Assembly: GCA_035437945.1 (NCBI GenBank)
Contig: DAOMZG010000002.1
Coordinates: 1,020 to 65,019 of the forward strand
Source: Verrucomicrobiota bacterium
GTDB lineage: Bacteria; Verrucomicrobiota; Verrucomicrobiia; Limisphaerales; UBA9464
Reading direction: 5' to 3'
DNA: 64,000 nucleotides
This document shows, piece after piece, positions 48,676 to 53,845 of the stretch; positions within the stretch are counted from its first letter, which is position 1; each line of letters begins with the position of its first letter. Position numbers and translations under genes: made by a program. The notes under the pieces are model-generated. The model did not search any database. It was not told where the DNA came from and was given only the letters and a program-made list of their open reading frames with translations.

Positions 48676-49641
48676 ATGTTTGACACCCTATTTCAAAGTG
48701 ATATCACTATGGCATCAACTACGCGAAACTCCCAAGAAATCATGAACACTTCCGCTCAAATCCCTAATCAGGAGCGCCCTGCCTCCACCGTGCCGGGCGC
48801 CCTGGTGTTGCCGGTTGTCTTAGCGCTGTGGGTTACCGCCGGCTGGATCGTCGTTTCCGCCATCCGAAACGACGTCGCCGCACGGATTCCCTACGCCATC
48901 GGGTTAATATTCGTGGGCGGCGTGTGTGCTCGCGGCTTCTTCACCTTGCAACCGAATGAAGCCCGCGTGCTGATTCTCTTCGGCGCTTATCGCGGCACGG
49001 CGCGCCAGAGTGGGTTTCATTGGGCCAATCCTTTTCTGACTCGTTTGCGAATGTCCCTCCGTGCCCGCAACCTGACCGGCGAGAAGCTCAAGGTGAACGA
49101 CAAGCGCGGCAACCCGATTGAAATTGCCGCCGTGGTGGTCTGGCGCGTGCAGGACACTGCTCAGGCCAGCTTCGACGTGGACAACTACGAGAATTACGTT
49201 CGCGTCCAGAGTGAATCGGCCGTGCGACATTTGGCCAATACCTATCCCTACGATCACGGCGAAGAATCCGAGGGCACGGAAATTACGTTGCGCAGCGGCG
49301 TGGAAGAAGTCTCCGCGGCCTTGCAACAAGAGCTCGGCGCGCGGTTAACCAAAGCGGGGGTCCTGATCGAAGAGGCTCGGCTCACCCATCTTGCCTACGC
49401 TCCAGAAATCGCTAGCGCCATGCTTCGGCGCCAGCAAGCCGAGGCGGTGATCGCCGCACGCCAAAAGATCGTCCAAGGCGCGGTGAGCATGGTGGAGATG
49501 GCGCTGACGCAGTTGGCGGAAAAGAACGTGGTCACGCTCGATGACGAACGACGCGCGGCCATGGTGAGCAATCTAATGGTGGTGTTGTGCGGGGAGAGTG
49601 ACGTTCATCCGGTAATCAACGCCGGAACGCTCTACACCTAA
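48676..49641 (+). CDS. SPFH/Band-7 domain protein with N-terminal TM segments
   Basis: Two hydrophobic spans, then the SPFH core ([23 protein letters not shown]) and a coiled-coil tail. The start could be ATG 48709. Confidence 0.8.
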
Positions 49642-49660
49642 GCGAACACGGCCACACCGT

Positions 49661-50224
49661 TTGCGACGTCTTCTGATGAATCTTCGCACTACATTTTCCG
49701 CGCCGTGGGGTCGGGCAGTCCGCTGGGCAACTGCGTTGACGATTGGACTCTTCCCGGCGGTGATAATAATCCTGGGGTCCGTAGCTCTAGAGACCGCTCG
49801 CATTTCCCCGGGTATATTCTGGGCGACGGCGAGTTTCTTGCTGCTTCTGTTGATCGGGGCGGCTCTGTTTGCGGTGCGCGGATTTCGGATTAAGGCGGGG
49901 CGGTTGGAGATTCTTCGGCCGGGCTGGACGTTGCCGATTTCGCTCGATGATTTGCGAACTCTCGAAGCCGATCCGGAGGCGATGAAGGGCGTGTTAGCCA
50001 CGGCGGGCAACTCCGGGTTCATGGGATGCATCGGGTGGTTTTGGAGTCGGCGCTTCGGAGCGTTTCGCGCCTGGGTCACTGACTCTTCGCGCTGCGTTCG
50101 GCTCACATTCCCCACTCGAGTCATCGTTGTGTCGCCGGATGATCCCGTAGCATTCGTGGCGGCGGTGAAACATCAAAAAGGTTGGAATCGCTCCAACGCG
50201 ACCCTTCACCTTCATGCCGGCTGA
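49661..50224 (+). CDS. Membrane protein with bacterial PH (bPH/YdbS-like) domain
   Basis: Two TM helices, followed by [24 protein letters not shown], as in bPH_2-type proteins. Confidence 0.5.
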
Positions 50225-50399
50225 CGATCGGAAAACCTTCCTCCTTCGAATCGACCCGGAACTGTGGCGTGAGGTCGAGTCATGGGCCCAAGACGAACTT
50301 CGCAGCGTTAACGGCCAAATTGAGTATCTGCTCAGAGAAGCTGTGCGCCGACGAAAGGGAGATTCCCCGCGGGCTGCCAGCCGACCGCGTCGACCGTGA
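50214..50399 (+). CDS. Arc-family ribbon-helix-helix DNA-binding protein
   Basis: [38 protein letters not shown] is the Arc/MetJ RHH pattern. Overlaps the upstream gene by 11 nt. Confidence 0.65.
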
Positions 50400-50439
50400 T
50401 CCTCCGGGCGTCCGAGTCTCGGCGAGATCTCACCCCAGC

Positions 50440-50605
50440 TTGACGTTTACAGGCCGGAGCCGGACGGTGGCAGTGTCGGATTATGCAATGTCGATTCTGT
50501 AAGAAGGCGACCGCGACGGTACATGTCACCTGGATCGTCGAAAACGAGACCACGAAGGCAGACTTCTGCGAGGCCTGCGCGAAGGAGAAGGGCGTGAATG
50601 ATCCG
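50440..50605 (+). repeat. Direct repeat copy 1 (upstream 43 nt plus first 41 codons of an mcsA-like gene)
   Basis: Offset of 298 nt to copy 2. Hand alignment gives 107/123 identical nt in the coding part. TTGACG sits at -43 in both copies. Confidence 0.85.
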
Positions 50606-50659
50606 GCCACCTTCCCCTTGCCCAAAGACGTGGGACGACCGAAGGGTGACGACGCCTGA
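50483..50659 (+). CDS. 58-aa zinc-ribbon protein, truncated paralogue of the McsA N-terminus (not in the ORF track, under 60 aa)
   Basis: ATG 50483 to TGA 50657-50659. MQCRFCKKATATVHVTWIVENETTKADFCEACAKEKGVNDP matches McsA residues 1-41 at 35/41 positions. All four Cys are kept. Eight codons differ only synonymously. Confidence 0.45.
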   Translation: MQCRFCKKATATVHVTWIVENETTKADFCEACAKEKGVNDPATFPLPKDVGRPKGDDA

Positions 50660-50737
50660 CCAATTCACCGGACATGGCTGACCTGCTGAAGCACGGTCGC
50701 ACGTGTCCGAATGGACGGTACGGACTGTTAGCCCGGC

Positions 50738-50903
50738 TTGACGACGGGGCGTGTGATGTGGACGTTGCCACTGTCGAATCATGCAATGCCAATTCTGTAA
50801 GAAAGCGCCCGCAACCGTCCATGTGACCCAGATCGTCGAGAACGAGATCAAGAAGGTGGACTTCTGCGAAGCCTGCGCGAAGGAGAAGGGCGTGAATGAT
50901 CCG
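50738..50903 (+). repeat. Direct repeat copy 2 (upstream region plus 5' end of mcsA)
   Basis: See copy 1. Confidence 0.85.
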
Positions 50904-51290
50904 ACGGTATTTTCTATCGCGGATATGCTGTTGGGCCTCGGCGCTTCGAAAAAGATGGAAGAAGCTACCGCGGCGAAAGGAACCGAGGTCGTTTGTCCTA
51001 GCTGTGGATTTTCTCAGGCCGATTTCAAAAAGTCTGGCCGGCTTGGTTGCGCGAAATGCTACACGGTATTTGCCGACGGTCTCGAGTCCTTGCTGAAAGG
51101 GATGCACAAGGGCTCGCAACATAAGGGCAAAGTGCCCCCGGCCCTGCGCCGCCTCGTAGCCGCCCATGCCCGCTTGGGTCAGCTCGAGGCCGACTTGAAG
51201 TCGGCCATCGACAAGGAGGATTTTGAGCAAGCCGCGACCCTGCGCGACGAAATCAAGCAGGCTAAACAGGCCGAAGCTGAGGTAGGATAA
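50781..51290 (+). CDS. mcsA: McsA-like protein-arginine-kinase activator (two zinc ribbons plus UVR domain)
   Basis: CQFC...CEAC and CPSC...CAKC zinc ribbons; C-terminal IDKEDFEQAATLRDEIKQ UVR motif. Lies directly upstream of mcsB. Confidence 0.8.
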   Translation: MQCQFCKKAPATVHVTQIVENEIKKVDFCEACAKEKGVNDPTVFSIADMLLGLGASKKMEEATAAKGTEVVCPSCGFSQADFKKSGRLGCAKCYTVFADGLESLLKGMHKGSQHKGKVPPALRRLVAAHARLGQLEADLKSAIDKEDFEQAATLRDEIKQAKQAEAEVG

Positions 51291-51346
51291 ACCCCATTTG
51301 TTCAACCCAAACGCAAGACACTTCGTACCCAGCCTTCGCGGTTCCC

Positions 51347-52444
51347 ATGAAAGTTACCGACTTCCTTACCCCACCCGCCGCCGTGAGTCAGCGGACCGGT
51401 CCGCACGACAAGATCGTGCTCTCCTCCCGCGTCCGGTTAGCCCGCAACTTGAGCGACGTCGCTTTCCCCGGCCACGCGAAGAAGTCGGATCGCGTGAAAT
51501 CCTACGACCTCTTGATTCCGCTGGTCGCCGGCTTACCGCAGATGGCACCGGAGCCCTTCGCTCAAGGGCTCGACAAGCTATCCTCCCTCGACAAGCAACT
51601 CTTGGTGGAACGCCACCTGATCAGTCGCGAACACGCGGCCAAAACCGCCGGCAGCGGTCTCGTGCTCAACCACGAGGAAAGCTTCTGCGTCATGGTGAAC
51701 GAAGAGGATCACCTCCGCATGCAAGCGTTGCGGCCCGGTTTGCAGTTGAAGCAGGCGTGGCTGGCGCTCGATGCGCTCGACTCTGCGTTGCAAGAACACG
51801 TCGAATTCGCCTTTTCGGAACGGTACGGATATCTGACGGCCTGCCCGACAAATTTAGGAACCGGCATCCGAGTCAGCGCGATGCTTCATTTGCCCGGTCT
51901 CGTTCTCGCCGAGCAAATCAATCAGATCATTCAAGCCGTTAACAAACTCGGACTGGCGGTCCGCGGATTGTACGGCGAAGGCACAGAAGCGTTAGGCAAC
52001 ATTTTTCAGGTTTCCAACCAACAGACGCTGGGTGAATCCGAAGGTGAGATTGTCGAGCGGCTCAACAAGGTCGTGTTGCAAATCCTCGAGCACGAGGAGA
52101 ACGCGCGGATTTCCCAGCTCGAGAAGAAGCCCCGAGTGCTGTTCAACCACGTTGGCCGCGCTTACGGGATTTTAAGCAACGCCCACAGCATTTCGTCGAA
52201 AGAGACCATGAACCTGCTGAGCTTGCTCCGGTTGGGCGTGGATCTGGGATTGTTCGAAGGGGTCACCCAATCGTTGGTCGATGAGCTGTTCCTGGTCAGT
52301 CAGCCGGCTCACTTGCAGGTGGTGCAGCCCGAGAAATTGGATGCCGAACAACGCGACGCGGTGCGGGCGGAGTTGTTGCGCGCGCGCTTGAAGCAGGTAC
52401 CCGCCCCGGATCACACCAAGGTGGGCGCGCCAAAGCCAGCGTAG
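51347..52444 (+). CDS. mcsB: Protein arginine kinase McsB (ATP:guanido phosphotransferase)
   Basis: EEDHLRMQ and CPTNLGTGIRVSAMLHLPGL phosphagen-kinase signatures. Confidence 0.9.
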   Translation: MKVTDFLTPPAAVSQRTGPHDKIVLSSRVRLARNLSDVAFPGHAKKSDRVKSYDLLIPLVAGLPQMAPEPFAQGLDKLSSLDKQLLVERHLISREHAAKTAGSGLVLNHEESFCVMVNEEDHLRMQALRPGLQLKQAWLALDALDSALQEHVEFAFSERYGYLTACPTNLGTGIRVSAMLHLPGLVLAEQINQIIQAVNKLGLAVRGLYGEGTEALGNIFQVSNQQTLGESEGEIVERLNKVVLQILEHEENARISQLEKKPRVLFNHVGRAYGILSNAHSISSKETMNLLSLLRLGVDLGLFEGVTQSLVDELFLVSQPAHLQVVQPEKLDAEQRDAVRAELLRARLKQVPAPDHTKVGAPKPA

Positions 52445-52498
52445 CCACATGCCGATCAGGACCAGGGCTGCCCGGGTCAGATTCCCTCCCGAGCTGCC

Positions 52499-53845
52499 TC
52501 AACCTGCGAGTTGGGTGGTGGGAGACTCCGCCGCAGCACCTGAAGCTTCCAGGACCTTGCGAGTCGCGGTCACCATATGGCGCGCCATCACCACGTCGGA
52601 GTAGCGAGCGAATACGCTCTCGCGTCCGCGGTCACCCAGTTCCCGGAGGCGAGCGGGTTCCAACAAGAGCGGTTCGAGCGCAGCCGCCAACGCTTCCGCC
52701 GTATTCGGGCCCGAAATCACGCCGCCGCCCGTGTCGGCCAGCAATTCTGGATACGTCACCGCGTTCGGCTGCACCAAAGGCGTTCCTGCCGCCAGTGATT
52801 CGATGACATAGAGGCCAAATGCCTCGCTCATCTTCGCCGGCACGGACAGCACATCGCACGAGGCATAAAACTCTACCTTTTCCTCGCGCGAAACGTTGGG
52901 ATGAAAGGAAACATCACCCATCACGCCTGCGGACGAAAGGGCCTGGCGTTGCTCCTCGACGAAGGCTTCGTCCCCGGGACCGCATCCGCCACCGATCTTC
53001 AATTTCAAATGGGGAACCCGGCCGCGTCGGCGCAACTCAATGAAGGCGGCCACGACCGTATCCAGGCCCTTCTCCGAACACATCCGGGCAAAAAAGCCGA
53101 GCGTCAGTGGGTCGCCCGCCCGTTTAGCCCCACGCGCGGGAAGTAGCGAATAGCCGTCGAGGCTGATCCCATTCGGTACCACCTGAACTTTGTTCGACGG
53201 TAAGGCTAAGCGTTCTCCCATCCGTTGCGCGAAGTACTTCGAGGGCGAAATCCACCCGTCCACGTCGGCCGCGCGTTGGGCGAGCGTGGACCAAGCCCTG
53301 GATTTCCACGGCTCGGGCATCGCGTCGAGGAACGATTCTTCGCTTTGGAGGAACGTAATCACTCGGGTACCGAGCGTTTCGCGGAGTCGGCGAGCAAATC
53401 CAACCAGGAGGGCGTTCGAAAGGAACACGGCGTCGGGCTTGGGCAAATGCTTCAGCCACGAAACGAGTTCGTCGAGATCCCGGGCTTGATTGCCGTGCTC
53501 ACCTTCCAGCATCGAAATTGTCAGTTCGCCAACATCGCCCGCCCGAGTCTTGGCCGCTTTGCCGGCGACAAATTTCAACACCGAGGGCGCGTCGAACACC
53601 TTTCGCAGCCATTGGGGAGCATGGCGATACCAGGATGATTTCTGATCGAAGAAGACATTGAGACCTCCGTAGAACGTCGGTGTTTGGCCGCGCGTCGAGG
53701 CTTCATCCAGCGTTAGCGGCAAGTACAGCGGTACCATCACGGTGTCGTGTCCTTGGAGCCGTAGTGCCGCAACGAGTGCGTTATCCCGGAAACAGTTTCC
53801 GCAGTACATGCCACCGGCACCCGGAGTGATCTGTACGAGATTCAC
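52499..53845 (-). CDS. Glycosyltransferase family 4 (GT-B, glycosyl transferases group 1)
   Basis: The N-terminal GGMYCGNCFRDNALV segment and the C-terminal EAFGLYVIESLAAGTPLV EX7E block. Confidence 0.85.
   Translation of the reverse strand: MNLVQITPGAGGMYCGNCFRDNALVAALRLQGHDTVMVPLYLPLTLDEASTRGQTPTFYGGLNVFFDQKSSWYRHAPQWLRKVFDAPSVLKFVAGKAAKTRAGDVGELTISMLEGEHGNQARDLDELVSWLKHLPKPDAVFLSNALLVGFARRLRETLGTRVITFLQSEESFLDAMPEPWKSRAWSTLAQRAADVDGWISPSKYFAQRMGERLALPSNKVQVVPNGISLDGYSLLPARGAKRAGDPLTLGFFARMCSEKGLDTVVAAFIELRRRGRVPHLKLKIGGGCGPGDEAFVEEQRQALSSAGVMGDVSFHPNVSREEKVEFYASCDVLSVPAKMSEAFGLYVIESLAAGTPLVQPNAVTYPELLADTGGGVISGPNTAEALAAALEPLLLEPARLRELGDRGRESVFARYSDVVMARHMVTATRKVLEASGAAAESPTTQLAG

Follow-up and report, generated by a model that had tools for sequence, protein, structure and literature searches.

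The bacterial proteins McsA and McsB tag other proteins for degradation by ClpCP through arginine phosphorylation. The locus described here lies in 64,000 nucleotides (nt) of a Verrucomicrobiota bacterium (GenBank assembly GCA_035437945.1, contig DAOMZG010000002.1, positions 1,020 to 65,019 of the forward strand; hereafter the window, from whose first letter coordinates are counted). It holds a complete mcsA-mcsB pair and, just upstream on the same strand, a 58-codon open reading frame (ORF) that repeats the first zinc ribbon of McsA (Z1) and is called the mini below. Eukaryotes have MicroProteins and dominant-negative truncated paralogues, for example the Id proteins and LITTLE ZIPPER. The mini resembles these in being a single interaction domain, duplicated from a multidomain protein and adjoining the parent gene, that could titrate the partners of its parent; it differs in that MicroProteins are a class defined by mechanism, whereas the mini is defined by its sequence.

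In published structures McsA contacts McsB through its second zinc ribbon (Z2) and loop L3, not through Z1. In Bacillus subtilis, Z2 and loop L3 bind the kinase domain of McsB and are enough to activate autophosphorylation; limited proteolysis removes Z1 and leaves the heterodimer unaffected (PMC11046695). Deletion of Z1 lowers autophosphorylation by ~75%, and the large McsAB oligomer is lost when either Z1 or the coiled coil is deleted (PMC11046695). The C-terminal zinc finger is involved in the Staphylococcus aureus complex determined by cryo-electron microscopy (cryo-EM; Lu et al. 2025, as summarised in PMC12467219), and the construct in a 2025 preprint contains Z2 only. No structure yet defines the role of Z1, which is not seen in the crystal (PMC11046695) and was left out of the cryo-EM constructs.

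The mini ORF is a lineage-specific tandem duplicate, with a period of 298 nt, of the promoter-like leader of mcsA and its first 46 codons. A repeat search of 49500-52500 finds one long direct-repeat family and no other long repeat: two copies of 144 nt, 85% identical, spaced 298 nt apart (Table 1). TTGACG starts at 50440 and again at 50738, and the corresponding ATGs lie at 50483 and 50781, a distance of exactly 43 nt in each copy. Over codons 1-41 the copies are identical at 107 of 123 nt, with eight codons differing synonymously and six by a replacement (from copy 2 to the mini: Q4R, P10T, Q17W, I23T, K24T and V26A), and all four cysteines of the ribbon (C3, C6, C29 and C32) are kept. The spacing of the copies, the positions of TTGACG and the ATGs, the count of identical nucleotides, the counts of differing codons and the four cysteines, together with the partial tandem duplication itself and the end of copy 1 at a TGA after 58 codons, had been put forward in a first-pass annotation made from the sequence, and each was reproduced. 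Its figure of 41 homologous codons counts the differences correctly and falls slightly short of the full homology: a profile built from the DNA of 79 mcsA orthologues follows copy 1 to codon 46 (50483-50620, model positions 1-138, E=8.4e-32; nhmmer) and detects no mcsA homology beyond that codon.

As the first-pass annotation had proposed, copy 2 continues into a complete McsA with Z1, Z2 and the UVR domain; its gene lies directly upstream of mcsB. The identification is confirmed by the UVR domain (Pfam, E=6.6e-7) and by a match to McsA of PDB entry 8wtb over residues 1-164 (E=6.9e-27), with a further match to the Z2 fragment in 8gqd (E=9e-7); the protein has 4766 homologues, the closest 83% identical. 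In the mini, residues 1-46 are homologous to the Z1 of B. subtilis and S. aureus McsA (PDB 8WTB/8WTC and 8GQD) and keep its CxxC-x22-CxxC spacing. Its Z1 scores 82 bits against the hidden Markov model (HMM) of the domain (E=2.5e-23; 96 bits for the Z1 of copy 2) and matches residues 3-39 of 8wtb McsA at E=0.003 (phmmer). Z2 and L3 are not in the mini, which ends at residue 58 with its mcsA homology ending at codon 46; the UVR model of Pfam has no match in the 58 amino acids (aa), being found in copy 2 only. With the coiled coil missing too, and with W17, T24 and A26 at positions conserved in McsA, the mini is a fragment paralogue and not an McsA. An AlphaFold2 model gives a predicted local distance difference test score of 83-88 over residues 1-40, with a beta-hairpin (13-19, 22-28) followed by a helix (30-36), and below 50 over residues 50-58; codons 47-58 are predicted to encode a novel, disordered tail. 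A fold search with this model gave no significant match (best E=0.15). The aggregate-binding N1 domain of ClpG (8p66, root-mean-square deviation 1.9 A over 38 columns) was among the top fold matches and was not built upon; the ClpG papers make no mention of zinc.

The duplicated unit includes what appear to be expression signals. When 22 distinct leaders of orthologous mcsA genes are anchored at the ATG, two elements stand at fixed distances, cCTTGACTt at -44..-38 and C.GA..TTG at -22..-14, with a non-conserved 14-nt spacer between them and ~13 non-conserved nt before the ATG; 17 nt separate TTGACT from the hexamer at -20..-15. The conserved leader resembles a promoter whose mRNA would be nearly leaderless. 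Ahead of the mini, the leader of copy 1 (P1) retains both elements, the second in a variant within the range of the orthologues, and differs at the non-conserved positions. The mini ORF therefore carries the same apparent expression signals as mcsA, and the earlier proposal that a promoter-like leader had been duplicated with the 5' end is borne out. That proposal also held that the hexamer and the nucleotides nearest the ATG were conserved around a drifted spacer. The hexamer and 16 of the 21 nt before the ATG are indeed kept, but the spacer (50446-50461 against 50744-50759) agrees at 3 of 16 positions, chance identity, although synonymous sites are only ~37% different and both flanks ~85% identical; simple drift at the observed synonymous divergence does not explain this. 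The copy-2 spacer resembles those of two related loci, L025 and L026, and the copy-1 spacer is therefore the derived one; from this comparison it has evidently been replaced or rewritten. A terminator scan between the mini ORF and mcsA found none, and an Rfam search of the inter-copy region returned no family.

The substitutions between the copies are unevenly divided between synonymous and replacement sites. Across the Z1 pair there are nine synonymous and seven replacement differences (Sd=9, Nd=7), giving a synonymous divergence (dS) of 0.52, a replacement divergence (dN) of 0.074 and a ratio (omega) of 0.14 by the Nei-Gojobori method, which averages the two branches; for the branch of the mini itself omega is estimated at ~0.3 with a wide interval. 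A neutral null was simulated in which copy 1 evolves neutrally and copy 2 accepts synonymous changes only, with the probability maximised over the unknown divergence. Seven or fewer replacement differences together with nine or more synonymous ones then arise with a probability of 0.004, 0.017 or 0.032 (kappa of 1, 2 or 4). Simulated to the calibrated divergence, a neutral copy still has its start codon, reading frame and four cysteines in only ~2.5% of cases, and the window copy shows none of the defects of a pseudogene (lost start, frameshift, internal stop, lost essential residues). This pattern is suggestive evidence against a freely decaying copy. The first-pass annotation had read selection on a small protein from the ratio of eight synonymous to six replacement codons. 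The rejection of the neutral null at 0.004-0.03 lends that claim some weight, but the ratio itself is confounded, since all the replacements lie on the copy-1 branch.

Comparable ORFs recur in other Verrucomicrobiota. A search of 80 related genome loci for a second Z1, by tblastn and HMM, found tandem copies in L070 and in the L020/L021 lineage; a gapped DNA pattern requiring a pair of Z1 motifs at a distance of 235-265 nt, which covers those periods only, found three more in JGI metagenomes (L091, L092 and L093); and the genomic context of short Z1-only proteins led to the pairs L095/L098 and L101/L102. Apart from L020/L021, all have the ATG and the four cysteines, and pairwise omega is 0.07-0.18 in all those tabulated except L091. 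Every mini is nearest to its own mcsA (in the window, 87% identical in nucleotides and 85% in amino acids), and the minis do not cluster together. The boundaries of the repeat unit also differ: in the window it begins in an intergenic leader, with a ribbon-helix-helix (RHH)-like gene upstream; in L020 it begins at the start codon, with a DUF952-like gene upstream; and in a clade with an aminotransferase gene upstream it takes in the 3' end of that gene, which becomes the tail of the mini. These differing boundaries and upstream genes indicate at least three independent births.

Selection on these other copies could in part be followed between orthologues. The neutral-copy null is rejected for L070, L092 and L093 at ~0.001-0.06. 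The cleanest test is between the orthologous minis of two strains, L095 and L098: over 204 nt they show a single replacement and a single synonymous difference, whereas at the dS of ~0.06 found in the flanking aminotransferase and mcsA genes a neutral mini should have gained ~10 replacements. The signal of purifying selection is clear in the L095/L098 and L101 minis. Minis occur on several contigs and in several samples with their length preserved; population variants of the L093 type are too alike to yield dN/dS. Away from mcsA there is in addition a stand-alone Z1-only family of 59-63 aa with conserved length and tail (proteins P0151, P0163, P0285-P0290 and P0294; P0163 against P0151, dS 0.88 and dN 0.15).

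Like the other minis (58-82 aa with the window copy included), that of the window consists of Z1 and a short idiosyncratic tail, derives from the 5' end of the resident mcsA by partial tandem duplication, and combines an intact start codon and four cysteines with a low dN/dS. Unlike them, it has a separate origin, a period of 298 nt against 204-260 nt, a different upstream gene and different boundaries. Its mcsA homology breaks off at codon 46, short of the conserved GFSLADLLLGLG linker found in most other minis. An intergenic promoter-like leader of its own precedes it, and 121 nt separate it from mcsA where the others have 2-38 nt. Taking the class as short ORFs of ~55-85 aa with an ATG and four cysteines that lie directly upstream of a full-length mcsA on the same strand and resemble that mcsA most, the window ORF belongs to it. 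The window thus adds one more member, of independent birth, to a recurrent class that derives from a well-known protein and has apparently not been described before. The first-pass annotation knew of no description of such a protein, and a literature search likewise found no paper describing Z1-only McsA paralogues. The suggestion in that annotation of a one-ribbon protein made on its own is strengthened by the intact Z1-only ORFs upstream of mcsA elsewhere and by the stand-alone family, and weakened because no orthologue of the window ORF was found in the databases searched.

Table 1. Features of the mini-mcsA-mcsB locus in the window, and tandem minis of related loci (period, gap from mini stop to mcsA ATG, and divergence from the Z1 of the resident mcsA)
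Feature	Position	Strand	Basis or properties
Upstream neighbour, 61-aa RHH-like ORF	50214..50399	+	ORF list; Pfam RHH_5 E=3.6e-5, below gathering score
P1, promoter-like leader of copy 1: CTTGACG 50439-50445 (-44..-38), CGGACGGTG 50461-50469 (-22..-14), non-conserved spacer between	50439..50469	+	orthologous leaders
Repeat copy 1, 144 nt	50462..50605	+	reference copy; 85% identical partner 298 nt downstream
Mini-McsA ORF, 58 codons + TGA (50657-50659)	50483..50659	+	ORF list, codon comparison, profile searches
Inter-copy spacer	50660..50736	+	no detectable homology to mcsA, copy-1 upstream region or Rfam; no terminator-like hairpin
P2, promoter-like leader of full-length mcsA: CTTGACG 50737-50743, TGGACGTTG 50759-50767	50737..50767	+	orthologous leaders
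Repeat copy 2, 144 nt	50760..50903	+	repeat search
Full-length mcsA, 169 aa: Z1, Z2, UVR/coiled coil	50781..51290	+	Pfam UVR, PDB matches
mcsB, protein arginine kinase, 365 aa	51347..52444	+	Pfam ATP-gua_Ptrans E=3.4e-67; gene calls on L001
L070 mini, 75 aa			period 260 nt; gap 32 nt; Z1 dS 1.03, dN 0.147
L091 mini, 65 aa			period 236 nt; gap 38 nt; Z1 dS 0.24, dN 0.086
L092 mini, 80 aa			period 245 nt; gap 2 nt; Z1 dS 0.83, dN 0.152
L093 mini, 82 aa			period 255 nt; gap 6 nt; Z1 dS 0.93, dN 0.157
L095 mini (L095/L098), 68 aa			period 214 nt; gap 7 nt; Z1 dS 1.36, dN 0.19
L101 mini (L101/L102), 65 aa			period 204 nt; gap 6 nt; Z1 dS 0.45, dN 0.031

The surroundings of the mini have no counterpart in the genomes nearest to the window. 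The gene order here is Band_7, bPH_5, RHH-like ORF, mini, mcsA and mcsB, followed by a convergent glycosyltransferase gene; in the closest relatives it is Aminotran_4, mcsA, mcsB and clpC, with ~90 nt upstream of mcsA and the second Z1 absent. The break in synteny falls between the RHH-like gene and the mini ORF. As the flanks differ from those of the relatives, and tblastn finds neither ClpC nor Aminotran_4 anywhere in the 64-kb window, the locus has been rearranged on both sides. Even in a collection of 15 billion proteins and 185,579 species genomes the closest McsA and McsB are only ~80-83% identical. With both sides rearranged, and no room for a mini ORF in the closest relatives, there is no orthologous site for comparison.

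The best explanation of these observations, and one to which about an even chance can be given from the sequence evidence, is that the mini, born by duplication, is made and kept as a protein under selection as one of the recurrent Z1-only class, and tunes McsAB; whether the copy in the window is itself a working protein gene is likewise an evenly balanced call. Several findings weigh against this explanation, and many of them would fit a non-functional relic, a young pseudogene whose frame is open by chance and whose benefit, if any, comes from the duplicated promoter (as tandem promoters into mcsAB) and not from the peptide. Duplication of a promoter and 5' end spares the downstream gene and would hence be tolerated, and as there is no terminator between the mini ORF and mcsA, transcripts from P1 would read into mcsAB. 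The mini ORF is also a singleton: no orthologue was found in the protein collection and species genomes just named or in JGI metagenomes, and the sole close sequence is from the same population. The intact syntenic small ORF which the first-pass annotation proposed to look for in related Verrucomicrobiota thus did not turn up in the databases searched. A protein search with the 58-aa ORF returned only itself, and an exhaustive HMMER search gave nothing closer than ordinary McsA N-termini.

The substitutions themselves can be turned the same way. At each of the six replaced sites copy 2 has the consensus residue of the orthologues, which places every replacement on the branch of the mini. Three of the new residues, W17, T24 and A26, occur in none of the 79 orthologues, which conserve these positions as Q/E, K/Q and V/L/I, and the Z1 profile score falls from 96 bits in copy 2 to 82 in the mini. 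Early decay would show the same signs. Replacements at conserved sites and a lower score mean that constraint is relaxed or shifted, not McsA-like. The test on the window copy rests on 16 differences, with a p-value that varies with the assumed transition bias. A simple scan finds neither a canonical sigma-70 match nor a Shine-Dalgarno site ahead of the mini, and the real mcsA is without them too. The 12-codon tail is unconserved and predicted to be disordered. Elsewhere, the youngest duplicate, L091, has an omega of 0.36 and is indistinguishable from neutral, and the L020/L021 lineage shows decay, its ATG having become ACG, with a TGA at Cys3 in L021. Intact minis are moreover over-sampled, since the DNA pattern needed an intact second CxxC and the protein finds needed a gene call; the unbiased set of 80 genomes holds one intact lineage (L070) and one damaged one (L020/L021). 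A relic nevertheless accounts poorly for replacements that are too few for the synonymous divergence and for an integrity that few simulated neutral copies share. Several older minis (dS 0.8-1.4) are intact with omega 0.14-0.18, the orthologous L095/L098 minis are clearly constrained, and a promoter-only benefit would not constrain the amino-acid sequence. A relic is thus somewhat unlikely, though a serious competitor.

Translation of the mini might instead matter in cis, by guarding a long 5' leader from Rho termination or by coupling into mcsA, and so set mcsAB expression. The mini stop lies 2-8 nt before the mcsA ATG in L092, L093, L095 and L101, a distance typical of translational coupling, and the negative terminator scan ahead of mcsA in the window would suit such a leader. 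In the window, coupling is unlikely because 121 nt lie between the mini stop and the start of mcsA and because mcsA keeps the complete elements of P2; a role for translation alone would predict neither the low dN/dS nor the retention of four cysteines, and Z1-only genes also occur away from mcsA. A cis-acting leader is accordingly improbable for the window. An artefact of assembly or binning, in which the mcsA genes of two strains were collapsed or chimerically joined, deserves mention because the source is a metagenome-assembled genome (MAG) and another candidate, protein P0170 of L094, proved to be a palindromic chimera. The two copies, however, differ by 13-15%, stand between unrelated flanks in a coherent tandem structure and have the architecture of many unrelated assemblies. 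A second, independently made ENA assembly, from an activated-sludge metagenome (L001, ERZ937822 contig), overlaps the window by 15.9 kb and is identical across the locus. Given this divergence and identity the locus is not an assembly artefact, an origin that is extremely improbable.

If the mini is retained as a protein, the structures of McsAB bear on what it could do. The first-pass annotation had suggested a decoy of McsB, which conflicts with structures in which McsA binds McsB through Z2 and L3 and Z1 is dispensable (PMC11046695; for S. aureus, as far as summarised in PMC12467219). Lacking Z2 and L3, the mini cannot dock on the kinase domain of McsB as McsA does, and a simple decoy is unlikely. 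Interference with the oligomerisation of McsAB that depends on Z1 and the coiled coil would be a better guess. In the proposed mechanism the mini protein would be made and retained under purifying selection, either weaker than the selection on the Z1 of McsA itself or of another kind. Free Z1 would compete for whatever partner Z1 contacts, be it the coiled coil of McsA, the dimerisation domain of McsB or a substrate, since Z1 and the coiled coil are needed in B. subtilis for higher-order McsAB assembly and full autophosphorylation. Acting like a dominant-negative microprotein, the mini could in this way adjust how the arginine kinase oligomerises, how active it is or which substrates it chooses.

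The wider proposal is that the Z1-only minis are a recurrently evolved class of microproteins, kept because free Z1 tunes McsA-McsB, for example by capping oligomer contacts or by substrate competition, with the window gene as a separately transcribed member. As a statement about the whole class this is rather doubtful. A further lead, by analogy, comes from the zinc ribbon of ClpE and a possible function in docking partners or substrates. Residues 1-35 of McsA align to residues 1-35 of ClpE (PDB 29hb) at E=0.0017, whereas the mini ORF reaches only E=0.83 against ClpE. Like the mini, the N-terminal zinc-binding domains that protein-quality-control factors of the ClpE/ClpX type carry are short C4 zinc ribbons; unlike those factors, the mini has no AAA+ module attached.

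The repeated birth and apparent retention of a stand-alone Z1 beside mcsA suggest a separable activity of this domain. If the proposal is true, the minis are a natural handle on the role of Z1 in McsA. They offer ready-made constructs for supplying Z1 in trans, and the locus is a clear bacterial example of how a partial tandem duplication that takes its promoter with it can give rise to a small protein gene. There is also a consequence for annotation. Pipelines label Z1-only ORFs as 'hypothetical' or (JGI), misleadingly, as 'protein arginine kinase activator'. The window ORF, which the first-pass annotation took to be untracked, already has a GenBank entry from a Verrucomicrobiota MAG (HRI11481.1, 'hypothetical protein PLX89_00625'); a second MAG with identical flanking proteins seemingly has no gene call at the site, as inferred from consecutive accession numbers.

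Several candidate features around the repeat were rejected. The remainder of a clean 298-nt tandem unit was sought in 50250-50461 against 50606-50759, which share only CCCRGCTTGACG, with a local score equalled in 88 of 500 shuffles. What looked like a vestige of the linker and Z2 of McsA in a different frame (MADLLKHGRTCPNG, from 50674) was not significant by nhmmer or by hmmsearch with a 79-sequence McsA profile, and no Z2-like sequence was found in any frame of 50606-50780. The candidate mini P0170 was set aside because its contig, L094, is a palindromic chimera in which Z1 and the 3' end of the aminotransferase gene recur inverted (L094:1286-1724); the chimera gave rise to a spurious 54-aa mini protein in the public collection.

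Some of the related loci have features of their own. In L020 (4797-5348) a DUF952-like ORF is fused in frame to the start-less Z1 copy, which is read as its C-terminal extension (183-aa product, three sequence variants), and L021 (5143-5290) is a fourth variant of this fusion with a stop at the first cysteine codon (118 aa); the copy is either a gene fusion or a decaying one. L093 (1036-1281) and L096 (1501-1749), from two strains, match perfectly in 600 nt of the aminotransferase gene, in Z1 and in the first 96 nt of mcsA, and have nine differences (six replacements) in residues 46-60 of the mini tail, a local hypervariable patch. Stand-alone Z1-only genes in L099 (1596-1787) and L100 (1613-1804) lie 54 nt upstream of a gene for a 549-aa CotH-family protein (PF08757, atypical kinase), with a divergent tetratricopeptide repeat gene, and may represent another pairing of a zinc ribbon with a kinase.

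The mcsA-mcsB locus is structurally plastic in this phylum. In several related genomes a prepilin-like gene of ~270-300 aa, with an N-terminal methylation-type signal, lies between mcsA and mcsB (L016:5186-5986, L018:2671-3495 and L025:5075-5989), and in two others (L028:5599-5961 and L030) the same site holds a membrane ORF of ~120 aa. Within the window, all nine mismatches to the L001 contig fall in 72 nt (49788-49859) inside the bPH_5 ORF (49661-50224), where they cause six amino-acid changes in a stretch predicted to be membrane-proximal; the patch looks like strain-level micro-heterogeneity or a recombination patch.

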